Positions 5,375 through 27,092 of a DNA stretch of 64,000 nt are shown here, piece after piece. The notes under the pieces were generated by a model that did no database searches, had not been told where the DNA came from, and saw only the letters and a program-made list of their open reading frames with translations. A program made the position numbers and the translations under genes. This DNA is from a candidate division FCPU426 bacterium (GTDB lineage: Bacteria > Oederibacteriota > Muellerivitia > Muellerivitales > Muellerivitaceae), in contig CAVTWJ010000023.1 in assembly GCA_963738405.1 (NCBI GenBank), positions 64,001 through 128,000 of the forward strand. Direction: 5' to 3'. Position 1 is the first letter of the stretch. Each line of letters starts with the position of its first letter.

Positions 5375-5382
5375 TTTATTTC

Positions 5383-5742: not shown

Positions 5743-6912
5743 TTATAAGTATTTTCGAAATAGTTCTTGATCATCATAGTTATCCGCAATGGTTTGAATA
5801 TCCCCGCGCAGGATGAGATTAATGCCGTAAACCTTGGCGCGATCAAAAGCCGCTTTCTTCGCCCCTTCATTATTTTGTAAATAGACCGAAGTCGTGATCC
5901 CCCAGATTTTCGTTTTTAAAGCCTTAATGTTTGTAACAATGCTAAAAATCTTAAAAAGAAAATCAGCTTTTTTATCGAACATTTGAAAACCGGATTTACA
6001 CTCAATGCCATATAAAGTCTGATTTTTAATAAAACAAACATCCAATTCTTGATTCTTCTTATGCAAATGGCATCCCGGTAATACCTGGGTTATCCCATTA
6101 AAGGTTTGGTGTTTTACAACCCAATTAAACATGAACGCTTCAAGCCATCCACCTGTTAAAAAATCCCCCGTTTTAGGTGATGTCGTGCCAACTAACCATT
6201 CATTTTCTAAATTAAGCCCCAATAAAGTAGCCATATCATTTGTAAACAAATCCTTATTAACTTTAATTTCACCCGGTCGCACTTCAGTTCCTTTGCGAAT
6301 AATTTCTTTACGATCATTTTTAACCAGAAAAGACCACAAATCTCCGCTAACTTTTGCGGTGGCCAATGCTAAATTTTCTAATTTAGGAAAGTTATTCTTT
6401 TTTCCAGTCACAACGGACCAGTTATCTATTTCTTCCCCATAACCCGCCAAATATTCATTGATATTTAACGGATAATCGCAAAACACATCCTTTTGATCGT
6501 TCTCAAATAAAATCACATCCGGTTTTCCAATATCGATATACAGATAATCCACATTCCCAAATTCACCGTTAGAGAACGTGTCATAAGCAGCAATTGACAT
6601 TAATTTATTACCGCCGGTTAAATTCACGTACCATTCCGTTGCTCCCTTTGCGAGGATTTTTTCGATACCACTTCTTAAATCATTCTCGATTTCCGAGATG
6701 GACAATTCATTAGTAAGAAAAATATCTTCTAAAATTTTCACGCCAGGATTCCCATTAACTTTCAACGCATCCTTTAACCACTGGGTATGATTCGTATTTA
6801 CATCTAGTGTTTTTTGGGTAACCACCAAAACCACCTGGTCAGGTTTTAAACTTTTTATGGGTAAAAAGTTAGGAACATGCTGGGCTGAAACAAGACAAAC
6901 CATTGTTTTCAC
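5743..6912 (-). CDS. card1: Card1/Can2-family CARF + restriction-endonuclease-like cOA effector
   Basis: CARF: LVSAQHVPN, NLTGGNKLMS; nuclease: GGWLE, ELDV, IECKSG; visibly AT-rich. Confidence 0.85.
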   Translation of the reverse strand: MKTMVCLVSAQHVPNFLPIKSLKPDQVVLVVTQKTLDVNTNHTQWLKDALKVNGNPGVKILEDIFLTNELSISEIENDLRSGIEKILAKGATEWYVNLTGGNKLMSIAAYDTFSNGEFGNVDYLYIDIGKPDVILFENDQKDVFCDYPLNINEYLAGYGEEIDNWSVVTGKKNNFPKLENLALATAKVSGDLWSFLVKNDRKEIIRKGTEVRPGEIKVNKDLFTNDMATLLGLNLENEWLVGTTSPKTGDFLTGGWLEAFMFNWVVKHQTFNGITQVLPGCHLHKKNQELDVCFIKNQTLYGIECKSGFQMFDKKADFLFKIFSIVTNIKALKTKIWGITTSVYLQNNEGAKKAAFDRAKVYGINLILRGDIQTIADNYDDQELFRKYL

Positions 6913-6938
6913 GTTAGAACCTTTCTGATTAGCTGGTT

Positions 6939-9359: not shown

Positions 9360-9361
9360 GC

Positions 9362-12831: not shown

Positions 12832-14369
12832 GAGTTCACTTCCGTCACCCAGTTCATCCTTGAATCTTCTTCCAGTAGGAGTAGCGCATCTATCACGGGT
12901 GTGGTACGCACGTTATGCCCGTTTTTGACCGATTTTTTCCATTTGCCTCCGGGTTTTTGGGGGCTTTCACCCTCATCCAGGTCGTTACTCAAAACTTCCT
13001 GGTTCTTCGCCAAGCTCTTCGCGAAGATCTTTCGGTCAAAAAAACCGGCCCTCATCCCTTTCAGCACACGGTGGCGGACCGAACCGGGCACTTTGCTGTA
13101 TTCCTGGGCTAACCGAATGAGGTCTCTCAGATCCGCGACCGGATAAGGCCTTTCGGTCAGTTGGATCCTCTCGTTCTGTAGATCGGCGTCCTGAAAAACC
13201 AATTCACGCTGTCGGCGAGCATGGGGTGTGTCGACCAGCCCCTCGGTGACCGATTCCCAGTCCACAAAAGAGGGGGTCGGAAAAACTTTTTGTTCACGGC
13301 CACCGCCCTTGGCGCTCGCCAGAAGCAGCTCGGTATAGGAGATGGCGGTGCTTAGCGGCAGGCCAATCGGGGCGAAGAGAATCCCGGCCGAAAGGGTGAT
13401 GTGGGATCCGGTAGCGGGCCACAGGTCAATGCCCCCCTTTTTCGCAAGGGCTGCCAATTCGGTGCTTTTCTCCTCGAAAACCCTGCAGGCTTCCCTTACA
13501 AAAGTCATCGCGTAACCGACATGACAAAGAAGGATAATGTCGTCCCCGCCGACCACGAGAGGCCGGATAGGCAGGATTATCTCCCCCCCGTCGACATCGA
13601 AACCTTCCTTTAGAGCGCGGATTTCTTCAATAATTAAGTCGATACCCTTCCTGCATGCTTCACGGCTGCAGGTGTCCAGGTCGCGACTCATCCGCCGAAG
13701 CCAACCGGTGAAAACGTCCGCCCGGTCCCCTAATTTTTCCACGGCCTTTCGATGCTGGGTTCCAATGTCGTTCCCATCCATGGCAATCACCGCCCAGCGG
13801 TTTCGGCCACCTAGTCTCTGCAAGGCTATTTTTCCCGCTGGGGTCGATTTATCCACGTCGTGGAAAAAGCTGAATTTCAAACCTTCTCGGCCATGACCAT
13901 TAACCCCCCCCAGCAATTCATCCTCAAAATAACGGTCCATCCGGTCCCCTTTTTGCCAGACCCGTTTTTTAACGATGTCGCTGACGCCGTTATTGGCCGG
14001 GTAGAGCCCGCTATCGGCACAAGGTTTGCCTCCCAGTTCGATGCTGGAAGGTAGCCAGGGATAAGTTTGGTCCGCGCCGTGGATGGCGACCGTGAAGTCA
14101 TCCGAAACGCCGAAACAGATGGTTAAACCATCCCGGTGCGCGGCTTCTACCAACTTGCGTCGTACCCTTTCCACTGCCTGGTCATTGGTACACTTGTAAG
14201 CGCCTTTTCCGCCGCCTGAAAAGAGGTGCTCTCCTTCCGGATCATTTATGCCTGGCGCGGTCACCCTGTCGTAACGGTCAATCAGCGCGCTTGATCCGCA
14301 AATGTATTTAAGGCGTGGGATTGAAAAGATGAAAGATTGAATGCCTTTTAAGTCATAGCAAAGATACAT
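12828..14369 (-). CDS. cas10: Cas10, compact, no HD domain, intact GGDD palm
   Basis: YDLKGIQSFIF, FSGGG, IAMDGNDIG, LVVGGDDIILL, LSAGI, ELLLASAK. Confidence 0.93.
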   Translation of the reverse strand: MYLCYDLKGIQSFIFSIPRLKYICGSSALIDRYDRVTAPGINDPEGEHLFSGGGKGAYKCTNDQAVERVRRKLVEAAHRDGLTICFGVSDDFTVAIHGADQTYPWLPSSIELGGKPCADSGLYPANNGVSDIVKKRVWQKGDRMDRYFEDELLGGVNGHGREGLKFSFFHDVDKSTPAGKIALQRLGGRNRWAVIAMDGNDIGTQHRKAVEKLGDRADVFTGWLRRMSRDLDTCSREACRKGIDLIIEEIRALKEGFDVDGGEIILPIRPLVVGGDDIILLCHVGYAMTFVREACRVFEEKSTELAALAKKGGIDLWPATGSHITLSAGILFAPIGLPLSTAISYTELLLASAKGGGREQKVFPTPSFVDWESVTEGLVDTPHARRQRELVFQDADLQNERIQLTERPYPVADLRDLIRLAQEYSKVPGSVRHRVLKGMRAGFFDRKIFAKSLAKNQEVLSNDLDEGESPQKPGGKWKKSVKNGHNVRTTPVIDALLLLEEDSRMNWVTEVNS

Positions 14370-14425
14370 CGAGAACCCCTTTCAATCATTTGTTCGAGGC
14401 CGCGTAATAACAAGACGTTTGATTC

Positions 14426-15601
14426 TCAAGACAGTAATCCTAATACCTTAATTGAAACCAACGTCCGATCAATCCCCAAAACCGCCTGGAGAGGATGCGC
14501 ACCTGAGCCCCGCCCCAGTTCGTTGACGATCAGCGCTGCTTTCGATGGGCCGAGTTGGGTGATGAGCCGTTTCCCAAGGCGGGACCGCGACGCCCCCCAC
14601 CAATTCGTCTCTAAAATCATGTCTGTATCAAATGGGCCCGTTAATAAATCATCATCGTTTTTGAAAATCCTGTAGGCAATCCTGCAAAACTCCAAATCCT
14701 TGGGTGTTAGCATAATTTTGATCGCATTCCCCGCGTTTGACTGCGCCTGATTGGTTAACCTACAGGGCTTTAACTGACAGGTCTCGCATGACTTAACATC
14801 CCGCGGACAAAGAATTCCATTTTTGCGCCACGCCAAAAGCGCCACCCAGAGGCTCTGTTTCGGGTCCAGGTCAAGCCGTTTCCCGTCCACTTCGATGTAA
14901 CCAGGGGCCTTTTCCAAGTTCACCGTCAAGCTGACCTGCTTCATGTTGAATTCCTCAAAAGCCGTCGTGAGCGAGGTTTTCAATAAATCGAGATGGATAT
15001 TCCTGAAAAAGTTATTGAGGCGAGGAAAAGGCACTTCAAAAAGATTAACCCATTTTATTTCGGCCTTCTTTTTGGGGTCAGGATACCACCCATTCGAAAG
15101 TTTCTTTTCCTTTCCCGGGTCCATGAGAACGTGGTAAAGAGTGTCCCCTTCCCTGGCGAAGGCGGACATACCAAGGGTCAGGTAAGCGGACATGGTTTTC
15201 CGCCCGCCCGCGAGGGAAGCTTGAAGCCCCACCGCCGGGTCTTTTGTGAATTCGTCCAAACGTTGGGCGATTTCCTCTTCCATGGCGGCGTTGGCCTCGC
15301 TGTCGCCAAGATCTTTTTTTATTTTCATTTTGGGGGGAATATGGATTTGAGATTCACCAAAAAGCGGGAAGGTTTTAGCCGGTAATTTCCAATCTTTCCA
15401 AAGCCTGGCAAAAGGGCCTTTCTTCATATCGATCAAGCCGGCTTCCAGAATTTTATTTTTACCTTCGCTGGTCGTGATCACATGAATTTCAGTAAGAATC
15501 ATTTTGTTTCTTACCACCAAAGCCCAAATCGCCTCGGTCAATACGGCCGGTGATTCCCCACCCGTCGCCAGAAAAATACTCTTTTTCTTATTCATAAACA
15601 C
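14426..15601 (-). CDS. NE0113/Csx14-family CARF protein with a Cys-rich and possibly wHTH C-terminus
   Basis: LATGGESPAVLTEAIWAL, HVITTSEG, SLAGGRKTMS, LYHVL; first gene of the cas operon. Confidence 0.8.
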   Translation of the reverse strand: MFMNKKKSIFLATGGESPAVLTEAIWALVVRNKMILTEIHVITTSEGKNKILEAGLIDMKKGPFARLWKDWKLPAKTFPLFGESQIHIPPKMKIKKDLGDSEANAAMEEEIAQRLDEFTKDPAVGLQASLAGGRKTMSAYLTLGMSAFAREGDTLYHVLMDPGKEKKLSNGWYPDPKKKAEIKWVNLFEVPFPRLNNFFRNIHLDLLKTSLTTAFEEFNMKQVSLTVNLEKAPGYIEVDGKRLDLDPKQSLWVALLAWRKNGILCPRDVKSCETCQLKPCRLTNQAQSNAGNAIKIMLTPKDLEFCRIAYRIFKNDDDLLTGPFDTDMILETNWWGASRSRLGKRLITQLGPSKAALIVNELGRGSGAHPLQAVLGIDRTLVSIKVLGLLS

Positions 15602-15761
15602 CCCCCCTTAAATTAGTTTTCAATCTTAAACCCGCCTGTCTTGTCTTTATAAATATCTTTCGCCCGTAAAGTCATTTAACGCTTCCTTAACATTGGTTTT
15701 CTTTTTATCCACTAATTTTAAGCCATTGTCTCAAAAGTCTTTTCCAATTCTAGTTGTGTTA

Positions 15762-16430
15762 TTAACGTCCTCGTCCCGAGCTTCTAAATGAACAACCCAT
15801 CGGCATTCTCATGGGAGGAGGCGCCGAGTAGTACATCACCCGTGGGGCGGAATAAATGACCCTAGCCGGTTGGGGATTAGCGTATCGAACGTAAGCCCGC
15901 CGAATAACCCGCCTTGGCGGGGTTGGGAGATAGACCCGAACATAACGATGGTCAATTACGGGGGGGCGAACAATCGTTCTCCTTTGATGGTATTGGTAGG
16001 ACGGCCTGGTGAAATGCCGGATCGGGTTTGAGATATATCCTCCTGTCTGATGGGTGATCGCTACCACACTAGCTTGGGTATAGGATTGCGACGAATAAGG
16101 ATAAACCGAAGAAGCCATTTGGGCTGAACTAGGTTGATTCGCGTGTCCTACAACTACGTTCCGGGATGCCGAACGCGTGACATGATTTTCACCTTCTGCG
16201 GGTGGATTACTAACGCGATGGGAAAGGGCCTCTAGACCCAAGAGGATGATTCCCCCACCCATTGCCAAGGTGAAAAGGATCGGACCCCAGTTTCGCTGGG
16301 CGCGCGGAACCGGTCGGTAAGGCGCGGTAACTCCCTGAACCGTTCTATGGCTCGGCGAAGAGCCAACGGGATTGATGGTCCCTTGAACCCTGTCGAAAGT
16401 GAACTGATCATTCGTTACGAAGCGTTCCAT
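15762..16430 (-). CDS. Hypothetical single-pass membrane protein with a Pro/Arg/Tyr-rich tail
   Basis: Hydrophobic segment ILFTLAMGGGIILLGL; GGAGG RBS upstream; co-directional with the Clp gene. Confidence 0.6.
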   Translation of the reverse strand: MERFVTNDQFTFDRVQGTINPVGSSPSHRTVQGVTAPYRPVPRAQRNWGPILFTLAMGGGIILLGLEALSHRVSNPPAEGENHVTRSASRNVVVGHANQPSSAQMASSVYPYSSQSYTQASVVAITHQTGGYISNPIRHFTRPSYQYHQRRTIVRPPVIDHRYVRVYLPTPPRRVIRRAYVRYANPQPARVIYSAPRVMYYSAPPPMRMPMGCSFRSSGRGR

Positions 16431-16536
16431 TGGGCCTCCTTTCTTTTTTATCCTTATCCTTTAATTGAATACTACCAGTTCTTCGACATCTTAAAACTTT
16501 TGCAAAATTGCGCCCTCCTGAAAGCCTTCCTGGTGT

Positions 16537-18657
16537 TTACTCATCAGATATCACCAGAGAGAGCCCTACCATCGGCTCGATTCTTTTGAACACCACTTTT
16601 TTGCCCCGCGTCGCCATGGTCTGTTCCGCCAGTTTGTCCAGGATCTCCTTTTGGAGCAGGCGGTTCATGGGCCTGGCCCCGAACTCGCTGGAGAAGCCTT
16701 GTTCGGCCAGCCAATCGACCGCTTCCGGAGTCACCTCCATTTCCACCCGCCCCTTCAAGCGTTCCTGGTACTCCCGGATCCTCATGCGGACAATTTCGCC
16801 GAGGGCTTCCCTGGGCAGAGGTTTGAAAAGTATGATCTCATCCATTCGATTCAGGAACTCGGGACGGAAAAACCGCTTCAGTTCACCGGTCAACCCTTCC
16901 CCCGACGGACGACCATCCCGGCTAGACGCTCCAATATTGCTCGTCATGATGATGACCGTATTCTTGAAATCCACTGATTTGCCCGCACCGTCGGTCAAAC
17001 GTCCATCGCCCAGCACCTGCAAAAAGAGGTTGAAGACATCCGAATGCGCTTTTTCCACCTCATCTAACAGCAGAACCGCGAAAGGCCTGCGGCGGACCGC
17101 CTCGGTCAGCTGGCCGCCCTCGCCATAGCCGAGGTAAGAGGGGGGCGCCCCGACGAGCCGCAAAACGGAATGCTTTTCGCTGTATTCGCTCATATCCAGC
17201 CGGACCATGGCCTTTTCCCCCCCGAAGAAACAATCGGCGACCGCCTTGGCCAATTCGCTCTTTCCCACGCCCGTGGGGCCGGTGAACAAAAGGGAAGCGA
17301 TCGGCCTTTTGGGGTCCGCTAACCCAGTAAGCCCGCGTTGAATGGCCCGGGCGACCACATTCACAGCCCCATCCTGGCCTCGGACTTTTTCCCGCAGTTG
17401 CTCGGCTATATCCGCCAATTTGAATTCTCCCGACCCATTAACAATGGAAAGAGGTATGCCTGTTTTTTCTGAAACCACCTCGGCGATATCAGTTGCAGTG
17501 ACCCTTGCGCTTATATTTTTTGCAGATCGAATATCCGCCCGAAGGCTGACCCTGGTCGCGGCTTCATCCAACAGGTCGATGGCTTTATCCGGCAGGAAAC
17601 GGTCCCCAATGAAACGGGTGGATAGGCTGACTGCGGCTTCCAGGACATCTTCCCCTATTGAAACGCCATGATGAGTTTCATAACTTTCTTTAAGACCTCT
17701 CAATATTTGGATACTGTCCGCAGCGTTCGGTTCCCCCACCCAGACCTTTTGGAACCGACGCGCCAATGCCGGGTCTTTTTCGATATGCTTGTGGTATTCG
17801 TCCAATGTGGTCGCCCCAATGCACCTCAAACCCCGTGCCAAAGCGGGTTTCAATATGTCGGAAACACTCGAACTGGCGTTCAATGCCCTGCCAAAAAGAG
17901 CGTGAAGCTCATCGATGAATAGGATGCTAGATGGCCCCGATTGCGCTATTTCGTTCAGAAGATTTTTAATCCTTTCTTCCATCTCACCCTGCCAAACAGC
18001 CCCACCCATGATTTTCACAACGTCAACCGCCATCACTTTTGTCCCCCAGAGAGGCCTTGGGGCCTGGCCTGAAGCAATGAGTTGGGCTAAACCTTCCGCG
18101 ATGGCCGTTTTACCGACACCGGGCTCGCCTACCAACACGGGGTTATTTTTGGTTCGACGCGAAAGAATGCGAATAACGTTAGCCAATTCTACCTGTCGGC
18201 CGATCATGGGTTCCAAATTGCCCTGGCGCGCTTCTTCCGTAAGATTCCTTAAAAAACTGGAGGCGGCAACTGGGGATGGACCAGACCGGGGCCCTCGGGG
18301 CTCGGGCCTAACTGGATTTCTAAACTCTTGGAGTGCACAGTCCAACAAAGGATCTTCGGGATAATGGCCGTTAATCAGCGTTTCCCAAAGGCAGTTCAGT
18401 TCGACGGTGCCATTAGGCGCCGAGGATTGCATGGCGCGGATGGCATCCTGGGATACGTGAAGCGTTTCAATTGGAAGACCCCCTCCGTTCGCAAACCTTA
18501 AGTTTGCTTTTAATCTAACAACTTTATCGGATGGCCTAACGATTTCACCGTTGTCAGCGATAGCAAGAACCAAATGCCTGGATTTCAAAAATGGGTCAGG
18601 ACCGGCGTGCCGGGCGGCCGTTAATAGCAGGTTTTCAGGAATCTCAATGGGTTGCAT
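16537..18657 (-). CDS. Clp/Hsp100 class I AAA+ ATPase (two NBDs), divergent N-domain, no M-domain, no IGF loop
   Basis: KNNPVLVGEPGVGKT, LFIDELH, IGATTLDEY, RFLPDKAIDLLDEA, GPTGVGKS, LDMSEY, LLDEVEKAH, FRPEFLNR, GARP. Confidence 0.93.
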   Translation of the reverse strand: MQPIEIPENLLLTAARHAGPDPFLKSRHLVLAIADNGEIVRPSDKVVRLKANLRFANGGGLPIETLHVSQDAIRAMQSSAPNGTVELNCLWETLINGHYPEDPLLDCALQEFRNPVRPEPRGPRSGPSPVAASSFLRNLTEEARQGNLEPMIGRQVELANVIRILSRRTKNNPVLVGEPGVGKTAIAEGLAQLIASGQAPRPLWGTKVMAVDVVKIMGGAVWQGEMEERIKNLLNEIAQSGPSSILFIDELHALFGRALNASSSVSDILKPALARGLRCIGATTLDEYHKHIEKDPALARRFQKVWVGEPNAADSIQILRGLKESYETHHGVSIGEDVLEAAVSLSTRFIGDRFLPDKAIDLLDEAATRVSLRADIRSAKNISARVTATDIAEVVSEKTGIPLSIVNGSGEFKLADIAEQLREKVRGQDGAVNVVARAIQRGLTGLADPKRPIASLLFTGPTGVGKSELAKAVADCFFGGEKAMVRLDMSEYSEKHSVLRLVGAPPSYLGYGEGGQLTEAVRRRPFAVLLLDEVEKAHSDVFNLFLQVLGDGRLTDGAGKSVDFKNTVIIMTSNIGASSRDGRPSGEGLTGELKRFFRPEFLNRMDEIILFKPLPREALGEIVRMRIREYQERLKGRVEMEVTPEAVDWLAEQGFSSEFGARPMNRLLQKEILDKLAEQTMATRGKKVVFKRIEPMVGLSLVISDE

Positions 18658-19897
18658 GTTGAGCCCGCCTTATCTTTTTCCCGCAACACTCGCAGGAATC
18701 CAGGGGATCGGTTTTGACCCCATACCACCTAAAAGGCGCCAACCCCTGTTTGAAGCCGGCAGCGCATAAGGGTGTCATCTTTCCTTCATAAGGGCCTTCG
18801 CGTCGGGTTGCCTGGAAAAAGAAACCATGTCCGTCGGCGAAATCTTCCATCCATCCCTCATAGCCACTGGGTTTTCCGTAAGTCAGGGCGATGAGGGCTA
18901 AACGGGCCATGAAGGCAGGCACGGGCGCGATATCCACGGCCAGTCCGGCCCAAATGGCCGTTTCCTTGTCAGCATAAGCGGGCAGGTTTCGATCCGCCGA
19001 GTGTAACGATGAGATTTCTTCGCTTTCATTGGAGAAAAATCCGCCGCCATAAAGACAGGCGAAACAGGCTTTTTGATGCCCCGGCCAAAACCAAAAAACA
19101 TCCCCGCCCACGCCCCTTTGAAGAACCCTTCCAATAACGAGAGGCTTGTTCCCAGTAACGCAGGCCTGATTGGCTTGGAACCGGGTTGGGTTGTTGTCCG
19201 TACCTACGACGCACAAGGAGGATTGTTGGACTAAGGCCGCGAGATTCATTTCGCGCATATCGCCGTGTAGGGTTTGCACATCAACCCATGGGTTTTTTTG
19301 TTGAAGCATAGACTTGACCGCATCAACCTTCCGGCGGCCTAATTGATTCAATCCAGCCGTATGGCGAAATAGATTCTCAAGGGCAATATGGTCTCCATCC
19401 ACCAGTATGAAGCGCATCACACCCGATTGAACTAGCAGTTGCGCTGTTTGGGAACCAAGTGAACCGCAACCCAATATCAAAACGGTTGAATCGGCCAAAT
19501 CGTCTACTTCCAACAAACCCTTTTGTCTGTCAAAAAGGAGTTCCCTTTTAGGCAATTCACTGAGAACCAAATCAGTTTCCTCGTCGTCACGGCAGTGGTA
19601 AACATGGGGATTTTCACCCTTATGGTGTTTTAGAATCACGAAACCCTCTGTGGGCGCAAACTGCTTCGCACGGGCCAACAACCTGGTAGGAATTTCCATT
19701 CCGTCCGGAACCGCGACTAAGGGGCTCGGAAGGCCAACCGACCGCCGGGCTTCCTGGCTGGACGGATCGGGGAAAACGTGCCATACCCGGCCTTCATCAA
19801 GAACCCGGCTACCCGCAGGGAAAAAACAAGGCTCGGGGGGCAAACGATCCAACCCCGGCCAAAGAAAAGCCTTGTTGGGGATTGAAGAAATCTTCAT
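18644..19897 (-). CDS. ThiF/E1-like adenylating enzyme with an N-terminal extension
   Basis: LGCGSLGS, LVDGD...ENLFRH, GRRKVDA, GTDN, CFAC...CECC Zn-binding pairs. Confidence 0.92.
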   Translation of the reverse strand: MKISSIPNKAFLWPGLDRLPPEPCFFPAGSRVLDEGRVWHVFPDPSSQEARRSVGLPSPLVAVPDGMEIPTRLLARAKQFAPTEGFVILKHHKGENPHVYHCRDDEETDLVLSELPKRELLFDRQKGLLEVDDLADSTVLILGCGSLGSQTAQLLVQSGVMRFILVDGDHIALENLFRHTAGLNQLGRRKVDAVKSMLQQKNPWVDVQTLHGDMREMNLAALVQQSSLCVVGTDNNPTRFQANQACVTGNKPLVIGRVLQRGVGGDVFWFWPGHQKACFACLYGGGFFSNESEEISSLHSADRNLPAYADKETAIWAGLAVDIAPVPAFMARLALIALTYGKPSGYEGWMEDFADGHGFFFQATRREGPYEGKMTPLCAAGFKQGLAPFRWYGVKTDPLDSCECCGKKIRRAQHATH

Positions 19898-20106
19898 TCG
19901 GTCACCTGGTTCTTTCCCCCAAAGCCCCGGGCGGCGATCTGCTGGATCGCCAAGTTTTGGGTTTCACGGTTGGGTTCGCCCATCCGGAGTTCACCCGTGG
20001 CGGGATCCATCAAGATGGCTTGGCCGGGGGTTTTACGAGGCAGGGGGGGAGCCGTAACCTCGGGCTGGGAGTTTCTTAACCTGTTGAATTCATCCATCAG
20101 ACCCAT
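19894..20106 (-). CDS. Small 70-aa peptide, candidate conjugated modifier (RGFGG-KNQVTE end)
   Basis: GGAGG RBS; stop overlaps the E1 start; lies between JAB and E1 genes. Confidence 0.7.
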   Translation of the reverse strand: MGLMDEFNRLRNSQPEVTAPPLPRKTPGQAILMDPATGELRMGEPNRETQNLAIQQIAARGFGGKNQVTE

Positions 20107-20133
20107 AAAGCACCTCCAGTTATTTTTCGGTTA

Positions 20134-20880
20134 TTAAACCGACCAGCCTTTTTCTGAATCGTTCAGCGCTCTTCTTGATTCGATATTACCAACTATTTTT
20201 AAACCTACCGGATTTGCAATTTTACATTCCGTTAAATTCTTCCCTTGGCCTATCGATTGTGTTCTGGCGTTCCCTTCCGCAGGCCGAAAATCCTTTGACG
20301 GTGGCTCTGAACACTTTTTTTCGAGGCCGGAATTATTCCTTGAAGCAGGAATGATTTTGATGGGAACCGGAAAATACTCGCCCTTAGGTAAAAACAGTGT
20401 CGCAGTCAAAACCAGTTTGGGTTTAAACGTTTTTGAGATGGAAGCAACAACGGCCATGAGCGGAAGTCCGGTTGATTGAGCGGTTGATTCCATCGTTGAA
20501 ATATCATGGCCGCTCACTGTTGGCAGACCCAAAGAATGGTGGGAATGCCATTGGCCCATATAGGCAAAACCCTGCAAACCATTCAGTTCGGCATTATGAA
20601 TTTCATAAGCAGGATCTTGTGTAAAGAAAGCGACATGCTTCACGGCTTTAGGGCCTGGGCCGGTTATCCGGGATATTAAGAACCATTTCCCCAGGTACAA
20701 CTTTCCGTAGAGGCCGCCCCCCGTTTCGTTTCTGGGGTTGGCAAAAGTTTCTCTTTCGATTTCTTTGTGGGCCGATTCCCTTATAAACAGACGTAAATGA
20801 GTCACGCCCGTCGTTTTGAAAGAAGGTTTTCTTTTGGCTTTGGGTTTGAACAGTTTTATCCAGAACATTACACGCCCCAT
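20134..20880 (-). CDS. JAB/MPN+ metallo-isopeptidase
   Basis: ETGGGLYG, GPGP, GQWHSHH...PTVSGHD (JAMM E...HxH...S..D). Confidence 0.9.
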   Translation of the reverse strand: MGRVMFWIKLFKPKAKRKPSFKTTGVTHLRLFIRESAHKEIERETFANPRNETGGGLYGKLYLGKWFLISRITGPGPKAVKHVAFFTQDPAYEIHNAELNGLQGFAYMGQWHSHHSLGLPTVSGHDISTMESTAQSTGLPLMAVVASISKTFKPKLVLTATLFLPKGEYFPVPIKIIPASRNNSGLEKKCSEPPSKDFRPAEGNARTQSIGQGKNLTECKIANPVGLKIVGNIESRRALNDSEKGWSV

Positions 20881-21329
20881 TCATTAAAAACTTGTTGGAT
20901 CGATTGTCCGGTTCTGAGATGCACGATGAAAGCTTCGGACCATAGCCGGGTTTTTACACACAGGTTGTATATGCTGTCGTTCGGTTTCCAGTCGTGGATC
21001 GTCACACAGAGCCTTAGCCTATTTTTACGGTTTGGCACAAGTCCAAGGACATGAAACGAAGCGTTAGCGCTTACAAACTGATCCCCTTGCCGATCAATGA
21101 CCGGATTAGGCTCATCAACAAGGACAAAGGGTTCAATGGAGCTTTCCTCTGGAAAATCGATGGTGTACCTGAACAAAAAACGCTCATTCGTCGGGATATT
21201 GATCTTAAACACGATAATTTCATTCCTGTCCCGAGATTCAGTTTCAACTCTCGCGTCCTGGAACCCATGAGCCCGTAACATGTTAAGTTCGAAGTCAGCC
21301 CTAATCAGGCGCTCTTGGGTGTAAGCCAT
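20868..21329 (-). CDS. Prokaryotic E2/UBC-like protein
   Basis: Pattern IDFPE..P.V, FHVL....LCV...WKPNDSIYNL resembles the UBC H(P)N...G.IC...W.P signature with the catalytic Cys position filled; operon context with E1 and JAB. Confidence 0.7.
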   Translation of the reverse strand: MAYTQERLIRADFELNMLRAHGFQDARVETESRDRNEIIVFKINIPTNERFLFRYTIDFPEESSIEPFVLVDEPNPVIDRQGDQFVSANASFHVLGLVPNRKNRLRLCVTIHDWKPNDSIYNLCVKTRLWSEAFIVHLRTGQSIQQVFNEWGV

Positions 21330-21724
21330 TGGATTTTCTCCTCTCTACCGCGATTCTCTCTACCCTCGTTTAAACCTTACCGGAATTTAGTCACTGTGTG
21401 TTTATTTGCAATTTTGAGAATTATGGGTCTCCTAACCCGACTTTCGGATGCTACCACTGAATTGTCTGGAGAACGGTTTTGCAAATTTGCGGGGCGGAGA
21501 CCGAAGAAGCGTACAAAAGACTAGAAGCAAAGAAGTAAGCTGGTACGCAACTTTGTGTAAGTTCTGTGTTGATTGGCTTTTATGAGGACATTCCAAACGC
21601 GAAGAAGAGTTTAATGGCAGGGTTTTACTCAACAAGCTTTCATTTAAACGGAAATTGGATGTGCATTAACTGGAAAAAATTATTACAGGGCTTGGAAACG
21701 AGTGATTTCTTAAAAGCTCAAAAT

Positions 21725-21925
21725 TTACGGATCTTCTATATCATTACTTCCCTGGTACAAAACCACATTTGATTCTTCCCAGGTTTGGAGGGGGAGTTGG
21801 TCGCTGGTCCAGACTTTCAGGATAGCTTTCCCGTCATTTTTCGAAAGGATGATCTTCTTGACCTGACCTCTAATCTTGAACCGCAGGTGCTGAACCCAGT
21901 CATTGATTTCGATTTTATTAGTCAT
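21725..21925 (-). CDS. Small hypothetical protein (beta-rich, possibly SH3-like)
   Basis: 66-aa ORF with ATG, co-directional with neighbours. Confidence 0.4.
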   Translation of the reverse strand: MTNKIEINDWVQHLRFKIRGQVKKIILSKNDGKAILKVWTSDQLPLQTWEESNVVLYQGSNDIEDP

Positions 21926-21967
21926 GATTTTGGCATGTGTTTAATTTTATCCATCTAGTTGGACCCT

Positions 21968-22930
21968 CTAAAGAACAGCTCGAAGTTCCGCAAACCGAGC
22001 CAGCACATCCCTCCAATGCGGGTATGGGGCGTAACAAAGAAGTCGGCATTGCTCCTCGTACTCAGCACCAATGACCGTTGCCAATTCCGCAGGTGGAAAA
22101 AGAGCATCGCTAAGCGAAAAACGCATGTCTTCGGGATAGAAATAGCTCTTGGGGAAGGCCGTGCGGCTGATATGGTCGTAATCCGTTTTGATGGTGCCGT
22201 ATTCCTTTGACCAAAGCATGGCGATGACTTCAGGCTGAGACGCCAGTTGGAAAAGATCGTAATAGTGTCGCGCATAACTGCCAATTGGACGCCGGTCGCG
22301 TTTCAACAGCTCCACCTTACTGTGGATGGCAAACATTTTCTCAACAAACGTCCGCCTGAAATGAAGCAACCGGAAGGGAAATCCACCCTCATCCTCCGCT
22401 CCCAAAGACGGACCTTTCTCCTTCAGAAACTGGCCGAGATAGGATTGAAGATTCACGATTGTTGTGGGTTCACGCCCGCTGGCCGTACCGGCCTCCACAA
22501 GAACACGATTGGCGACTTCCCCAGAACCACCGAAGCGCTGCGTATAGGAGAACCTGTCACTACGGCCAAAACCGCCAATCGTTTGACTCTCCTTTTCGAT
22601 GAACGTCAGCGCAGGATGGGCACCAATGGCGTCCCGGAGTTTCTTGAGTTCCCGGTCAATCGCCCGTTTAACCAACGCAGGTTGAAAAGCGGCAGGGTCA
22701 AGAAAAAGGTCTATGTCTTCCGAAAATCGCTGGATCAAATTCCAGCCTTTGAGCAGGCTGGTGCCGCCCTTGAAGATGACTTTGTCCCCTGCCGTGGCCG
22801 CAATAATGCGCAGGGCTTCAGTGACGTAATAGTCTTTCTCGATGATGGCCGGACGCAATCCTTGGGCTCGGAAATGTTCCGCCGCCCGGATAATCGCCTG
22901 TTCGAAATCAGGGTTTTCATACAGTCTCAC
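21968..22930 (-). CDS. AbiEii-family nucleotidyltransferase toxin (GTG start at 22930 likely)
   Basis: IEKDYYVT, FKGGTSL, RFSEDIDL, RTFVEK, RHYYDL. Confidence 0.92.
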   Translation of the reverse strand: MRLYENPDFEQAIIRAAEHFRAQGLRPAIIEKDYYVTEALRIIAATAGDKVIFKGGTSLLKGWNLIQRFSEDIDLFLDPAAFQPALVKRAIDRELKKLRDAIGAHPALTFIEKESQTIGGFGRSDRFSYTQRFGGSGEVANRVLVEAGTASGREPTTIVNLQSYLGQFLKEKGPSLGAEDEGGFPFRLLHFRRTFVEKMFAIHSKVELLKRDRRPIGSYARHYYDLFQLASQPEVIAMLWSKEYGTIKTDYDHISRTAFPKSYFYPEDMRFSLSDALFPPAELATVIGAEYEEQCRLLCYAPYPHWRDVLARFAELRAVL

Positions 22931-22931
22931 G

Positions 22932-23678
22932 TCAACGACGCTCCTTTGCCTGCCATTCGGAAGCAAACTTTAAACTAGAAAAAATTCCAAAGTCGAATCT
23001 AGAGAATGGGTTGAGGGATTCTCGTAAACGGCGCAACACTTTCGGATTTTTTCCAAGCTGTTTCCCCGCCGCACCCAATATCGCCCTAACCCTCGGTGGT
23101 TCGGAGTCCGCCACACTGAGCAAACGCTCAAAGCACCCCTTTTGGGATAACAAATCCATGGTTCGGCTGATGGTTTCGGCAGGGGACATTTCACTCGATT
23201 TCCCCCCCTGGCGCAGAAAATCCAGAAGCGCGGCTTCCTTTTCCGCAAGGTTTCCCCATGCTTCCGGTCTGCGGGTATGAATGACTGTATTCTTCCCAAT
23301 AAGCTTGCGGGGAAGGCTTGAGGCGCTTGTGGCGATCTCGCTTTCCTTAGGGTTCTGGGTTGTGAACCCCAAGAGATTCGCGGCTGCAATCCCTGAAGGA
23401 AACATCGTCTTTCGCTTCGAAGCAAGCATCTGGATTAAAGCCGGATTTGGACGGCTTTTACCAAAGTTGGTTTGCCGTGTCCGGTAATAGACACCTTTGC
23501 TAAGCCGATCAATCATCCCGGCGCGCGTAAGCCGTGAGAGAGCCTGGGCAACTGCTGCAAATGGAAAATCCCGAAAATCCTCCAAACGCCATAATCGTTC
23601 GCCGCCATTTTCGACCCGTTGGCGGACAAGCCCGGAAATTTTGGTTGGATTGGAAGGCGTTTTAAGGATCGTGGACAT
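22932..23678 (-). CDS. AbiEi-like antitoxin / wHTH regulator (ATG at 23678 likely)
   Basis: AVAQALSRL...RLSKGVYY, SGIAAANLLGFTTQNP; directly upstream of AbiEii. Confidence 0.85.
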   Translation of the reverse strand: MSTILKTPSNPTKISGLVRQRVENGGERLWRLEDFRDFPFAAVAQALSRLTRAGMIDRLSKGVYYRTRQTNFGKSRPNPALIQMLASKRKTMFPSGIAAANLLGFTTQNPKESEIATSASSLPRKLIGKNTVIHTRRPEAWGNLAEKEAALLDFLRQGGKSSEMSPAETISRTMDLLSQKGCFERLLSVADSEPPRVRAILGAAGKQLGKNPKVLRRLRESLNPFSRFDFGIFSSLKFASEWQAKERR

Positions 23679-23708
23679 ATTGATAATATCGGGCCAAGGC
23701 AACTTTAC

Positions 23709-23736
23709 GTCAAGTTTTTTTGCTGTAAAACTTGAC
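23709..23736 (-). promoter_or_regulatory. Inverted-repeat operator overlapping a putative -35 of the AbiE promoter
   Basis: GTCAAGTTTT-8 nt-AAAACTTGAC; minus-strand TTGACG followed 17-19 nt later by GATATT/TATTAT. AbiEi autorepression at promoter inverted repeats is established. Confidence 0.65.
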
Positions 23737-23788
23737 ACTTATCAATTAACCCCCTTTTAGAGCCACCTATGCTCAACCTCATCAAGGT

Positions 23789-24613
23789 TTACTTCCCTTC
23801 ATCTACCAACGGGTGATTCAACTGGTGCCAGATCCGTTTGAACGGAAGGGACACGGCCTTCTCATAATCTGATACAAACCATCGGGATCGTTTTCGTTCA
23901 TCGATTCGAGAGCGAAGGATATTGATCATTCTTTTTGCATTTTCCGGATTCGCCGAAACAACGAGCCGAAGTGCATCAGGAAAAGATTCATCTAGGTATT
24001 CAATCATTCTTCTAATTTTCCCTTCTGGGTTTTGAACATGCTCGAATTCCAATGCAAAACCGTATCTCTTCCCTTCCAAATCGGCCTCGAAATACCCATC
24101 AGGAGTTCTACGCCCCTTACTTTGGATATTGACCCAATTAGAACGCCATTTTCCCTTGTCTAATTCCCCCGCCAAAAATGTCTTTTTAACTTCCTGAGTG
24201 ATACCACCCCGCATTTCAAAGTCTGAAAGCCAAAACACCCTTTTAAGTTCAGTATTCGCCTCAAACGCGATTCTTATGGTTTGAACAAGCAAGTCGTGTT
24301 TTCTTTCGTATGGATTAATCTTTACAGGATAATTCACGCTTCGTACAAGAATCTTGCCCATTGCGTCTAAGGCCTTGATGGCACCACCCGTCAGGTAATA
24401 CATAGAATCCTGAAAAGTGGTTCCTTCCGCCTTGGTCACTTCCAAGAACCCTTTTTTCAGATATTGGTTTCTAAGAACATGGCAGGCCATTCGGTAGGTT
24501 CGGGGTTGGATGAACCTTTTGTGGAATAACTCGGGAATGGTGAACTTATTGGAATGAATCCAACCTAAATGCGCAGCTTCTTCTTCCGTTATTAAGAAAT
24601 TCGGCTTCATCAT
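23789..24613 (-). CDS. Replication-relaxation family protein
   Basis: N-terminal wHTH-like region, KHDLLV, RTPDGYF, FALEFE; adjacent to a coupling protein. Confidence 0.7.
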   Translation of the reverse strand: MMKPNFLITEEEAAHLGWIHSNKFTIPELFHKRFIQPRTYRMACHVLRNQYLKKGFLEVTKAEGTTFQDSMYYLTGGAIKALDAMGKILVRSVNYPVKINPYERKHDLLVQTIRIAFEANTELKRVFWLSDFEMRGGITQEVKKTFLAGELDKGKWRSNWVNIQSKGRRTPDGYFEADLEGKRYGFALEFEHVQNPEGKIRRMIEYLDESFPDALRLVVSANPENAKRMINILRSRIDERKRSRWFVSDYEKAVSLPFKRIWHQLNHPLVDEGK

Positions 24614-24618
24614 TTGCT

Positions 24619-26445
24619 TTAACCCTGTTTCCCATGCTCATTGTGCATAGTTAATTCAATTTCCAGTTTTTCGCCCACTGGCGCTTCACCCTTTTTCCGC
24701 TGTTTTGGTTCTTTAGGCACAACAGGAATCTCGATCTTATTGAACTCATTTTTCTTCAAGTGGTTATTTCGGATAGGAACGCAACCCACATAATCGAATT
24801 CCCTCGGAGGAGGTTTGACTTCTTTGAGCTTCATTTTGAAAACCTTCGGGCCTGAGACATAAACGATCCTGCACACCGCTTCCCCACGTTTCATTCCCCT
24901 CAAGTAATTAGGATGAATAATAAACTCCTCATCCTGTTTTTCGGTCCGTCCCCTAGGCTGAGAGATACGGGTGTCATATGAATAAACGTCTTTCTTTGTG
25001 ACTTTGGTCCCGAAAATCGATGCGAAGAAGTCCACCGTGTCTTTCTCAGTGATGTTCATCACGATTTTGTGGTTGGTGTTGGTGAGAATGTCATCCTTGA
25101 ATTCCTGGCTGACGGCCCCCAACTGGCCCAAGCTGTGGTGGGCTAAAAAAAAGCAAACATTTGCTTCGCGCCCTAAGGAAATAAGGTCATTGAGCCCCGG
25201 ATAGGCGGCGGTGTAGAACTCGTCCAAAAAGACGAAAAAGGGCCTTTCCGGCTTCTCAATAAGCCTCCGCCCTATAACCCCCGCCAAGTCAGTTAGGGCC
25301 GAAATAATGACCGGTTTGGAGTCCTCCTGGTTCACAAGTGAAGAGGTTCCAAATAGGAATATCTGTTGTTTCTCAACCACATCCCTCATCTTGATATCCG
25401 GGTTCAGGGTGTTGATAAGGGGTGACCACTCACGGGTGGTGAAACGTGCCAATTTGCTAGTTAGGCCTGAAAGATTAAGCTCCCTGTCCTTCTCCGACAT
25501 ATTGACCCACTTTTCCAGGAAGTATTTCCCCGAGACGGTGTCCTCGTGTTTCCGAGCCAAGACCTTTATCGAATCGAACGATCTGATTTCGTTTGAGATA
25601 AGGTTCTGGTAATCCATCCGGGTAACGTGCTTGAACTCCAAGAAAAGAAGGTTGGTAAGGTTGCTCAAAACGTCGCTGGCTTGGTCCCGATAATATTCCT
25701 GGGTCACAGGGCCGTAAAAGATCGACTTCATGAGGCCATTGAAGACCTCGTCTGGCTTATCCTTGAAATCCGGGTTGTAAGTCTGGCTCCTTTTCACATC
25801 TGCCAAATCAAAATACTTAAGGTCATGGAGCCGTCCATATTTCTGGGCGTAATAGGGAATGTGTTTGTTGTAATTGGATTTGGCGTCGAAAACGAACATC
25901 CCCAAACCGTTCCTGATCCCCTGTTCAATCATGTGGTTGAAAATGTTTGTTTTTCCCATGCCGGAAGATCCGATGACTTCCGTGTGGTACTTGAGCAGTT
26001 CAGCAGGAATGAAAAACTTGTTTTCCGCATCTAGGTATAAAGAGAATTTTCCGCCTTCTTGGCGGGGCGACTCGCCCGGATGCTCTGGGATATGTCTCAT
26101 GAAAAAATGAATAAAATAAATGCAGAAACCTATCAGGATGGAAAGCCCCATCACCACATCCCCCGTGAACCCCTCGGTTCCCAGAAACACCCCGAAAAAG
26201 TCATGGCAAAAAGCTAGGGCAATAACGGCAGGGGCCAAGGCTAAGAGGTGGGTCATTCGGACATGCTTCTCAAACATGTAGAGAAAACCCACGGAGAGGG
26301 CCGCAAGAGTGTCAAAGGGGGTAACGGATGGGGATATGACCCCTAAGACTTCAAGGGTGAATTTAAGGCCCGAATAGACCCCAAATCCAGCTAAGACAGG
26401 AGGGGTGTGCTTCTCAACTGATTTGAAAAAATTCCAGGTACTCAT
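24619..26445 (-). CDS. VirD4/TraD-like type IV coupling protein
   Basis: N-terminal TM helices, HTEVIGSSGMGKT, FDAK, FLDEF, GREANV, HSLGQL, RGEA. Confidence 0.88.
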   Translation of the reverse strand: MSTWNFFKSVEKHTPPVLAGFGVYSGLKFTLEVLGVISPSVTPFDTLAALSVGFLYMFEKHVRMTHLLALAPAVIALAFCHDFFGVFLGTEGFTGDVVMGLSILIGFCIYFIHFFMRHIPEHPGESPRQEGGKFSLYLDAENKFFIPAELLKYHTEVIGSSGMGKTNIFNHMIEQGIRNGLGMFVFDAKSNYNKHIPYYAQKYGRLHDLKYFDLADVKRSQTYNPDFKDKPDEVFNGLMKSIFYGPVTQEYYRDQASDVLSNLTNLLFLEFKHVTRMDYQNLISNEIRSFDSIKVLARKHEDTVSGKYFLEKWVNMSEKDRELNLSGLTSKLARFTTREWSPLINTLNPDIKMRDVVEKQQIFLFGTSSLVNQEDSKPVIISALTDLAGVIGRRLIEKPERPFFVFLDEFYTAAYPGLNDLISLGREANVCFFLAHHSLGQLGAVSQEFKDDILTNTNHKIVMNITEKDTVDFFASIFGTKVTKKDVYSYDTRISQPRGRTEKQDEEFIIHPNYLRGMKRGEAVCRIVYVSGPKVFKMKLKEVKPPPREFDYVGCVPIRNNHLKKNEFNKIEIPVVPKEPKQRKKGEAPVGEKLEIELTMHNEHGKQG

Positions 26446-26714
26446 GGCGGTATATCTTCTTCAAGGGAGAATGGAACACTAAAAACCCCTTAACTTTTAT
26501 TACCGCCACTGCGCGTTGACAAGTTCATATTTGCAGGAATTAGGAAAAATCTTCCTGTCATATACGTGTCATTCGTTTTGCTTTTTAGTGATTTTTTACG
26601 ATCATTGGTGATCACTGATGATCAGTTGAAAAAAATAGCCTTTGCCCTTCGGGATGCGAAATCCCTTACAGGCAAAGGCTTTTAAAATGCGCTGGGAACA
26701 ATAATTTTTTGAAA

Positions 26715-26792
26715 TGGCGGGGTTGACGGGGCTCGAACCCGCGACCTCCTGCGTGACAGGCAGGCGCTCTAACCAAACTGAGCTACAACCCC
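26715..26792 (-). tRNA. tRNA-Asp (GTC)
   Basis: GGGGTTGTAGCTCAGTTTGGTTAGAGCGCCTGCCTGTCACGCAGGAGGTCGCGGGTTCGAGCCCCGTCAACCCCGCCA; cloverleaf with encoded CCA. Confidence 0.98.
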
Positions 26793-26946
26793 TCGCAGGT
26801 AAAGGAAAAAGCAGGAAGGAGAATCCCTCGCTTTGTCACTCGGTCCACATTTGAACCGCCCTTAAGGGAAGCGAAACGGAGGGGTATCGTATAGGGGCAG
26901 GTGGCTTTCGTCAAGCTTAGGAGGTTCCCGGTTTTGTCGCTTGGTT

Positions 26947-27092
26947 GTCATTGCGAGGAAAGTCCCCGAATAGGGGACGCTTATGACGTGGCAATCTCAG
27001 TTTAAATATGCCTTTAAAAAAGCCAACGCGAACGGCGACCTGGGATCACCACGTCGCCAACCGCCCCCATTGGGGCGGCTCCTCGTGATGAC
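26947..27092 (+). repeat. REP-like nested palindromic element
   Basis: GTCATTGCGAGGA...TCCTCGTGATGAC and GACGTGGCAATC...GATCACCACGTC arms plus internal GC hairpins. Confidence 0.7.

Follow-up and report, generated by a model that had tools for sequence, protein, structure and literature searches.

E1/E2/JAB conjugation, as far as the sources cited here describe it in bacteria, makes use of either a beta-grasp ubiquitin-like protein (Ubl), as in the Bil and Bub systems, or the C-terminal tail of the cyclase itself, as in type II CBASS (signalling against phage by means of cyclic oligonucleotides). The peptidases of these pathways are reported to act on fused precursors: in a cGAS-GFP fusion, Cap3 of type II CBASS cleaves behind the final residue of cGAS (bioRxiv 10.1101/2022.03.31.486616), and the Ubl-E2 fusion BubAB is cleaved by its own JAB (PMC11601596); ubiquitin-like domains have also been described at the N-termini of E1-like proteins (PMC1779556). 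Searches of the openly accessible literature found no non-beta-grasp small protein described in an E1/E2/JAB cassette, nor such a cassette described as an accessory of type III CRISPR. Here we analyse a 70-residue open reading frame (ORF) encoded between the genes of a JAB peptidase and an E1-like enzyme, in a stretch of 64,000 nucleotides (the window; contig CAVTWJ010000023.1 of assembly GCA_963738405.1, positions 64,001 to 128,000) from a candidate division FCPU426 bacterium. With a probability of roughly one half, we read this small ORF as a peptide tag that is processed by the JAB peptidase and conjugated by the E1 and E2-like proteins; the small, largely unstructured, non-beta-grasp peptide would then be the dedicated substrate of the adjacent machinery, which resembles a split form of the type II CBASS proteins Cap2 and Cap3.

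The small ORF is a real gene that is translationally coupled to E1. Its TGA stop and the ATG of E1 overlap as ATGA (19894-19897, read from the DNA), and the Shine-Dalgarno (SD) sequence of E1, AGGTGA (19902-19907), lies inside the tail codons of the small ORF (AAG AAC CAG GTG ACC GAA). A codon-usage score trained on the flanking genes gave 26.2 bits for the annotated frame and -15.6, -11.7, 17.4, 7.7 and -17.5 bits for the other five, and the GC content by codon position is 0.61/0.46/0.69. A 69-residue protein from an independent contig (P0001) is 87% identical to the small ORF (E 6e-31); it was the sole match both in a word search of 5.8 billion clusters and when 1.84 billion representatives were scanned in full with HMMER, and it agrees with the window ORF up to ...IAARGFGG, after which GLKVK stands in place of KNQVTE. 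The features that an earlier note had picked out from the letters of this DNA were all found, namely a Pro-rich stretch (residues 15-27, with 5 Pro in 13), a DPATG hairpin motif (residues 34-38, within a predicted beta-hairpin) and the end ...IAARGF(62)GG(63-64)KNQVTE(65-70), in which six residues follow RGFGG; the same holds for the gene's own ribosome-binding site (GGAGGTG) and its coupling to E1, amid E1, E2-like and JAB genes with intact catalytic motifs.

We also considered that the small ORF might be an untranslated chance frame in the spacer between JAB and E1. ORF size alone is not significant, with 91 ORFs of at least 40 residues overlapping the 13 kb from 14000 to 27000; the small ORF had zero matches in Pfam, NCBIfam, PADLOC and the PDB, tblastn of the 70-residue protein against plasmids gave a single chance-level match (E 0.6), and recognition by the Protein Atlas was low (best score 0.78, uninformative). 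Such a chance frame is nonetheless hardly credible, and we judge the ORF to be a gene, because of the 87% homologue, the strong SD and the ATGA overlap, the codon score, its position filling the JAB-E1 gap on the operon strand, and the syntenic small genes of related loci; its scores against profiles of those relatives also lie above those of 1987-1998 of 2000 shuffles.

Related E1 loci hold a whole family of such small proteins. Among 5940 candidates, 11 E1 relatives (the window's own included) were retrieved at E <=1e-10, and alignment A1, comprising ten E1 relatives, yielded nine genomic loci. Stand-alone ORFs of 57-74 residues lie immediately 5' of E1 and after the E2-like gene in L001, L002, L004, L005 and L009; in L002 and L009 the stop of the small ORF and the start of E1 share nucleotides, and an SD-like sequence stands 5' of the small-domain ORF in L001, L004 and L005, as well as in L003, L006 and L008. 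Of 115 candidates, 65 proteins matched profile A3, built from eight members, at E <=0.01; the 65 are all in clusters that are unnamed or called 'hypothetical protein', and 57 of them are stand-alone, strongly conserved proteins of the L002 type with no cargo. Members measure 57-78 residues, are encoded beside E1 and share one order of elements: a helix, a hydrophobic-D-P-x-T-x hairpin, a strand, a C-terminal aromatic motif and a tail. Both the family and its gene architecture are solid, and the window ORF, which agrees with the family in position, size and predicted element order (helix, hairpin around hydrophobic-D-P-x-T-G, short strand, ...A-R-(x)-G-F, tail), is a probable member.

The small domain keeps close company with the E2-like gene: the two were found together in 10 of 12 sources (the window, L001-L005, L007-L009 and L011), with the qualification that eight of the ten matches to the E2-like hidden Markov model (HMM) come from its training alignment and only those in L008 and L011 from outside it, and neither was detected in L006 or L010. 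The E1 of L010, on an Acaryochloris plasmid and in a different context, was accordingly set aside. A 74-93-residue ORF between JAB and E1 in L006 (ending DPGG+LKQYFNI), which formed part of alignment A2 only, was rejected as a relative, since it neither aligned at E <=100 nor matched the HMM. L006 (1187-1468, 3953-8073) has its E1 relative and JAB beside Cas2 and a Cas_APE2256 CARF protein, a second CRISPR-linked context.

Conservation within the family is sharp at the C-terminal motif and ends there. In the 57 L002-type proteins, the last 12 positions of the motif, GLNISSEDADMF (G-L-N-I-S-S-E-D-A-D-M-F), have an entropy of 0-0.9 bits and the closing Phe is present in 57/57, while the two positions that follow (+1 and +2) rise to 3.3 and 3.2 bits. 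The tails beyond the Phe are short and uneven in length, with 3 residues in 48 proteins, 2 in four, 4 in one, 8 in three and 42 in one. The L009-type proteins end in ...ARSGFF followed by ADKR, AGGRS or GSRV, and P0013 in ...LIVGG followed by TTD. In the family alignment, F62 of the window ORF falls in the conserved Phe column, which is nearly invariant in alignment A6, and GGKNQVTE falls in the variable tail. The earlier note had proposed a masked C-terminal Gly-Gly and had suggested an alignment of homologues to see whether a GF(G/x) end is conserved. The idea of a masked end is partly supported, inasmuch as P0001 is conserved exactly to RGFGG and the family shows a boundary followed by variable tails, fusions or tandem copies, and the alignment bears out the Phe; the Gly-Gly is limited to the window, P0001, P0013 (VGG+TTD) and P0035 (AGG+RS) and is lacking in other clades. 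With the Phe conserved and Gly-Gly lying in the tail, it is not Gly-Gly that the family conserves. The motif has a possible parallel among known substrates: Enterobacter cloacae CdnD, a proven substrate of Cap2, is reported to end in ...KTGRFA (bioRxiv 10.1101/2022.03.31.486616), and this ...GRFA resembles both ARGF-G(G) of the window and ARSGFF-A of the L009 type in that a small residue comes right after an aromatic one.

What comes after the motif varies widely. It may be 2-8 variable residues, the E1 protein itself (L003, P0008, P0010 and L011, and, in a frameshifted form, L008), a second copy of the domain, or a membrane-like domain (L007). In L003 the small domain is fused to the N-terminus of E1, as it is in L008, a second copy from the same metagenome-assembled genome; P0008 and P0010 are fused too, with the family HMM matching residues 1-57 at ~3e-7 outside its training set, and 2-10 residues link the small domain to E1 in the fused forms. 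The cultured Bradyrhizobium barranii offers a further case, a plasmid locus (L011) whose annotated 483-residue ThiF protein begins with the small domain (E 4.7e-26); a second B. barranii plasmid record gave the same match figures. Its junction, DADMF-SV-VTLSS, corresponds to L002, where DADMF-YLS(stop) is followed by MITITT, so that the domain passes between split and fused states over a short evolutionary distance.

These fusions would also suit a different reading, in which the small protein is a detachable N-terminal accessory domain of E1 that docks E2 or recruits the substrate and is moved by gene fission and fusion, its variable tail being an unconstrained domain end or a linker to E1. 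Besides the interchange of split and fused forms (L003, P0008, P0010, L011), this reading can draw on the constant place of the domain beside E1, often with translational coupling, on its strict co-occurrence with a separate E2-like gene (10/10 together, 0/2 otherwise), which also fits an E2-docking piece, and on the lack of any conserved terminal Gly. The last tail residue of the L002-type proteins (Ser in 37/57, Leu in 8/57) is likewise what an xxA-TGA overlap with the E1 ATG, as inferred from the L002 junction, would lead one to expect. A precedent exists in that the domain N-terminal to E1 in Cap2 is reported to position E2, like the N-terminal domain of ATG7 (bioRxiv 10.1101/2022.03.31.486616). 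Yet an accessory domain is hard to reconcile with L007, in which two tandem copies of the domain, fused to a hydrophobic Gly/Ala-rich domain, come after E1, and against it stand also conservation that ends abruptly at one residue per clade before tails of 2-8 residues, a motif that resembles the end of a proven Cap2 substrate, the absence of a detectable copy of the domain in the canonical Cap2-like E2-E1 fusion P0012, and the intact JAB that is kept in 8/8 aligned loci. On balance we regard it as the foremost of the alternatives, though a less likely one than the tag. A related proposal, that the small ORF is an internal piece of a split Cap2, is not supported, with no domain match in P0012 and PADLOC profile coordinates that leave little room for it.

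The arrangement in L007 deserves a separate description. No ORF lies between E2 and E1 there; instead a 274-residue ORF (8895-9719, plus strand) begins right after the E1 stop and carries tandem copies of the domain, ...ELFFDRGSGRLVV...EMARTGFF and ...ELVFDPSTGKLIV...TMARTGFF, with a hydrophobic, Gly/Ala-rich, glycine-zipper-like region of roughly 100 residues 3' of them that ends ...EALFG. The ORF as a whole matches the family at E 8.6e-9 and its two domains at 6.7e-4 and 0.012, all outside the training set, and it might be an effector that acts on membranes and is first produced in precursor form. This protein would fit a further explanation, in which the small domain serves as a recognition and cleavage handle, or pro-domain, through which JAB controls a downstream cargo, stand-alone copies being decoys, inhibitors or remnants while E1 and E2 act on the cyclase, the CARF protein or Cas10. 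The E1 fusions and the constant presence of JAB fit as well, and E1/E2 of type II CBASS can, according to the cited report, use a cyclase as substrate (bioRxiv 10.1101/2022.03.31.486616). We consider it improbable all the same: 57 of the 65 family proteins are stand-alone L002-type proteins with tails mostly of 2-3 residues, strongly conserved although they carry no cargo, and the C-termini of the Cas10-like, CARF and AAA+ proteins of the window show no related motif on inspection of their translations. Nor does the CD-NTase of L002 have a Cap2-type tail; this short protein of 295 residues ends ...FSPREE, with no Gly/Ala end on inspection, so that the cyclase is not an obvious E1 substrate in that locus and another one would be needed.

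The enzymes encoded around the small ORF look active, to judge by catalytic motifs that are intact in E1, the E2-like protein and JAB. In E1, a ThiF domain occupies residues 127-286 and an extra N-terminal domain of ~120 residues precedes it. The protein matches the PADLOC CBASS E1-E2 models at 1.2e-30 over their E1 part only (profile positions about 250-515), all its NCBIfam matches lie below cut-off, and its nearest PDB sequences are MoeB, ThiF, Uba4 and MccB (E 2e-12), followed by PaaA (E 4e-6) and Cap2 (E 7e-6). The residues of the Gly-rich loop, D167, R178, K190 and D234 are invariant in 15/15 aligned E1s. The only invariant Cys residues (15/15) are C278, C281, C402 and C405, which form a Zn-site pattern, and E1 has no conserved catalytic Cys because these four alone are invariant. 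This is not without precedent, as the Bub E1 is likewise described as lacking a catalytic cysteine (PMC11601596) and the E1 cysteine of Cap2 is reported to be dispensable in vitro (bioRxiv 10.1101/2022.03.31.486616). After the first CxxC, at residues 292-297, E1 has an EE[VI]SS loop that is conserved in 80% of the 15 E1s. We take this to be the place where other E1-like enzymes carry their catalytic Cys. By analogy with the Ser-based chemistry of Bub, a Ser of the loop may play a role.

In JAB, the motif residues E52, H112, H114, S123 and D126 are invariant in 8/8 aligned proteins, and the JAB part of the NCBIfam 6A-MBL cap2_3 model is matched at 1.4e-10, below its cut-off. The E2-like protein gave zero family matches in Pfam, PADLOC and NCBIfam, while Cys108 and Trp114 are invariant in 8/8 aligned sequences. 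Its family profile, compared with the PDB, placed the RWD domain of RNF25 first (E 0.004), most of the others listed being UBC-type E2s (E 0.1-1.5), a result that would suit a UBC-like fold without proving one.

The small protein itself is not predicted to have a beta-grasp fold, as the earlier note had supposed, although the models are of low confidence and the negative is a weak one. A beta-grasp would call for beta-beta-alpha-beta-beta in at least ~65 residues. From a single sequence, AlphaFold2 (AF2) placed helices at residues 3-12 and 47-59 and strands at 31-33 and 40-42 (pLDDT 67); from a 34-row alignment it placed a helix at 3-12, strands at 30-33, 40-43 and 52-54 and a disordered end (pLDDT 56). 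Foldseek found no counterpart of the single-sequence model in the PDB at E <=0.001, profile A6 reached a best E of 0.79 against PDB sequences, and Pfam gave only scattered matches, shared by 1-2 members each at E 0.01-0.2, across all 34 members of A6. The small protein probably folds only on a partner. Complex predictions with two copies of E1 (from A4), ATP and the small protein (from A6) gave ipSAE values of 0.67, 0.00 and 0.11, a median of 0.11 against a mark of 0.32, from runs made without controls; these values speak for binding as little as they speak against it.

How might such a peptide work? In the mechanism that we propose, it would be made as a precursor ending in a tail that can be spared, (GG)KNQVTE, the codons of which also serve as the ribosome-binding site of E1. 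JAB would trim the precursor at or just after the ...ARGF motif, that is, after F62, G63 or G64, and E1 would bind the helix-hairpin part and adenylate the new C-terminus. The tag would then move to Cys108 of the E2-like protein and on to amino groups of targets, a transfer that JAB could reverse. We infer this cleavage, adenylation and conjugation chemistry from sequence features: the sharp boundary with its variable tail, the varied sequences found downstream of it, the co-occurrence with E2 and the retention of an active-looking JAB are what make the family look modifier-like, and these four features are typical of genes for ubiquitin-type modifiers that have a processing peptidase of their own. 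More speculatively, the tag would regulate cyclic-nucleotide immunity or pass its targets to an unfoldase; we propose such a role because the cassette shares its operon with a ClpA/B-like unfoldase and lies directly upstream of CARF and type III CRISPR-Cas genes.

Several observations weigh against a tag. The evidence for it comes from sequence and genomic context. No Gly is conserved at the boundary, and the residue after the Phe has 13 identities in the largest clade, some of them bulky. Such an end, with no conserved Gly and so varied a residue after the boundary, is unusual for known substrates of E1 and JAB. Fusion to the N-terminus of E1 through 2-10 residues is also what would be expected of a detachable E1 domain, and two E1 relatives (L006 and L010) have no detectable small domain. 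That the protein is 'not beta-grasp' rests mainly on element order and length, because the AF2 confidence is low. The likeness of the window ORF to the family is itself weak, its membership being modestly supported by direct comparison: an HMM of eight relatives, made without the window ORF and P0001, ranked it 1 of 861 six-frame segments at E 0.32, an HMM of L009-type proteins and L007 repeats ranked it 1 of 1272 at E 1.4, and one of 64 members, mostly of the L002 type, ranked it 6 at E 7.1; the reverse profile search, with the window ORF and P0001 against the nine loci, found no syntenic ORF, and BLASTP against the L009 ORF aligned only a 14-residue hairpin (E 0.012). When the ORF was taken as a single candidate fixed beforehand by its position, 3, 2 and 13 of 2000 composition-matched shuffles reached the real score for the three HMMs.

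The genes around the small ORF are listed in Table 1. Those from 21329 down to 1541 are all on the minus strand, and the operon runs E2-like, JAB, small ORF, E1 and ClpA/B-like AAA+ ATPase, directly upstream of a CARF protein and the type III CRISPR-Cas genes. The start of the ClpA/B-like ATPase overlaps the end of E1 by 14 nt, which places it in the same operon; it is without a long M-domain and scores 743 bits with ClpB and 652 bits with ClpA, both below the NCBIfam cut-off, and no Clp-like ATPase of this kind was found among the related loci whose ORFs were scanned.

Table 1. Features of the window around the small ORF and its operon (aa, residues).
Feature	Position	Strand	Remarks
TraG/TraD-type (type IV) coupling protein	24619-26445		
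tRNA-Asp	26715-26792		
AbiEii/AbiEi-like toxin-antitoxin pair	21968-23738		upstream of the cassette
E2-like protein, 153 aa	20868-21329	-	invariant Cys108, Trp114; unannotated family
JAB/JAMM peptidase, 248 aa	20134-20880	-	PADLOC JAB 1.9e-12
Shine-Dalgarno GGAGGTG of small ORF	20111-20117	-	4 nt 5' of ATG (20104-20106)
Small ORF, 70 aa	19894-20106	-	MGLMDEF...IAARGFGGKNQVTE
C-terminal motif and tail of small ORF	19894-19923	-	F62 19921-19923; G63-G64 19915-19920; K65-E70 and stop
ThiF-type E1-like adenylyltransferase, 417 aa	18644-19897	-	PF00899 8.5e-33
ClpA/ClpB-like double AAA+ ATPase, 706 aa	16537-18657	-	Pfam AAA_2, AAA_lid_9, AAA, ClpB_D2-small
222-aa protein with hydrophobic segment	15762-16430	-	
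CARF protein, NE0113/Csm6 type	14426-15601	-	NCBIfam 114.9 bits, cut-off 80.65
Short Cas10-like cyclase, 513 aa	12828-14369	-	
Two RAMP proteins, 682 and 486 aa	10783-12831, 9362-10822	-	
TIGR03986-like RAMP, 806 aa	6939-9359	-	weak gRAMP/Cas7-11 match
Card1-type CARF nuclease	5743-6912	-	
STIV-B116-like protein	5383-5700	-	
Cas6, Cas1, Cas2, reverse transcriptase	4468-5322, 3162-4370, 2710-3126, 1541-2713	-	
CRISPR array	222-1564		repeat ~37 nt (GTTTCAATCCCGTCTAAGTCCGGGCACTACAAGCAAC), period ~72 nt, ~16-18 units

The type III locus (1541-14369, minus strand) is unusual in composition, with its short Cas10-like protein, large RAMPs, Card1-type nuclease and a reverse transcriptase alongside Cas1-Cas2; the CRISPR array adjoins the reverse transcriptase (1541-2713), Cas2 and Cas1, and the STIV-B116-like proteins are presumably ring nucleases. 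To judge by the AbiE pair, the coupling protein and tRNA-Asp that lie upstream, the cassette and the CRISPR locus would seem to be carried on an element integrated at the tRNA; a 274-residue protein of unassigned type is also encoded within 21968-26792, along with these genes. Between AbiEii and the E2-like gene lies a 66-residue, all-beta-looking ORF (21725-21925, minus strand), which was considered as a Bil-style Ubl and rejected, though on weak grounds: by inspection it has no SD, and it lies ~400 bp from E2. Its nearest Atlas clusters are unnamed proteins of 62-72 residues (0.91-0.92), followed by SH3-like DfrB, DUF3104 and DsrB (0.87-0.88).

Elsewhere the cassette is found with other partners. 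In L002 it accompanies a CD-NTase and a TIR-SAVED protein, and in L011, according to the annotation, a TIR protein and a nuclease-domain protein. In L001, L003, L004 and L008 (about 8750-16600) a large protein of ~1000 residues is encoded downstream of E1 together with two small proteins of 170-220 residues; the large protein gave weak ATPase-type (HerA/STAND) Pfam matches in L003 and L004 and none in L001, L001 and L004 also encode a Ser/Thr kinase, and L001 and L003 gave weak beta-propeller-type matches. These downstream genes look like a different, uncharacterised system. As it accompanies CBASS, type III CRISPR and large ATPase/kinase contexts, the four-gene cassette behaves as a portable module.

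If the tag reading is true, these systems would have a third kind of substrate, a small tag made for the purpose and lacking the beta-grasp fold, the chemistry of E1 and E2 needing only a recognisable C-terminal tail, and the cassette would be a compact, portable tagging module. In many defence operons a component may have been missed through blindness to small ORFs, a possibility raised by the family having no Pfam, NCBIfam or PADLOC model. The link to type III CRISPR-Cas, CARF and a Clp-like unfoldase suggests that cyclic-oligoadenylate immunity is subject to a new layer of control. A bolder synthesis, tentative at best and on the whole unlikely, would see in the small protein a portable 'Cap2-substrate tail': a free tag of ~60-70 residues without the ubiquitin fold, trimmed by JAB and passed on by a Cap2-like E1 and a new family of E2, its cassette shared by CBASS, type III CRISPR/CARF and ATPase/kinase systems and here read by a ClpA/B-like unfoldase. 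This would amount to a pathway of the ubiquitin-plus-unfoldase type that does without ubiquitin and is connected to CRISPR signalling. Should the small protein instead prove to be an accessory domain of E1, split Cap2-like enzymes would have a newly defined accessory domain and, besides it, a new family of E2.

It is instructive to set the locus against known systems, beginning with the more distant ones. The PDB sequence matches of the window E1 include MccB (with MccA) and PaaA, E1-like enzymes whose adenylation substrates are non-beta-grasp peptides. The window E1, with its extra N-terminal domain, might hold a peptide; MccB has a 'peptide clamp'. MccB and PaaA, however, belong to pathways for ribosomally synthesized and post-translationally modified peptides, which have no E2 or JAB and in which the peptide undergoes chemical modification and not conjugation. 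The earlier note had spoken of a Pup-like peptide, and this stands as an analogy: Pup is also a small tag of ~60-70 residues that is predicted to be largely disordered, and the operon of the window includes an AAA+ unfoldase gene. Pup is ligated through the side chain of a C-terminal Glu by PafA, a glutamine-synthetase-like enzyme, not by E1/E2, and it ends in GGQ or GGE, whereas the window C-terminus is ...GFGGKNQVTE. Pfam scans of the 22 window proteins neighbouring the small ORF found no homologue of PafA or Dop, and the closest precedent is not Pup but the handling of the CD-NTase tail by Cap2 and Cap3.

The Bub systems come nearer, in that the modifier of Type I BubAB is fused to a pathway enzyme and released by JAB and E1 is without a catalytic cysteine, but they are described as having 1-3 beta-grasp domains, a conserved terminal Gly, a Ser-type E2 and a DUF6527 protease (PMC11601596). 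The same Pfam scans of the 22 window proteins gave no DUF6527 match, and the E2-like protein of the window has an invariant Cys. The Bil systems share with the cassette the use of four separate genes, for modifier, E2, JAB and E1, and a modifier that is processed beforehand by JAB (bioRxiv 10.1101/2023.09.26.559546). They differ in that BilA is described as a beta-grasp protein with a C-terminal Gly, encoded in the order Ubl-E2-DUB-E1 (bioRxiv 10.1101/2023.09.26.559546), whereas the small protein here lies between JAB (or E2) and E1, with no predicted beta-grasp and no conserved Gly; moreover, the type II Bil E1 is described as comprising IAD, AAD and CYS domains, and the window E1 has a single ThiF domain. 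With ubiquitin-like modifiers at large, the family shares its encoding together with E1, E2 and JAB, its variable tails, its fusions to E1 and its tandem copies.

The closest system is type II CBASS. The E1 and JAB of the window find their best matches in the PADLOC models of Cap2 and Cap3 (1.2e-30 and 1.9e-12), a non-beta-grasp C-terminal tail serves as the substrate in CBASS and would do so here, with JAB able to cut whatever trails it, and both are linked to cyclic-nucleotide immunity, through the CD-NTase and TIR-SAVED protein in L002 and through Cas10 and CARF in the window. The differences are no less plain. Cap2 is an E2-E1 fusion, whereas E2 and E1 are encoded here by separate genes and the E2 family is unannotated; the substrate of CBASS is the cyclase's own tail, whereas the candidate here is a free-standing protein of 57-78 residues; Pfam and PADLOC detected no CD-NTase in the window, whose cyclase is Cas10-like; and the cassette rides with unrelated systems, its NCBIfam scores falling far below the cut-offs. 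The cassette therefore appears, from these comparisons, to work most like Cap2 and Cap3 of type II CBASS without being a member of that system.

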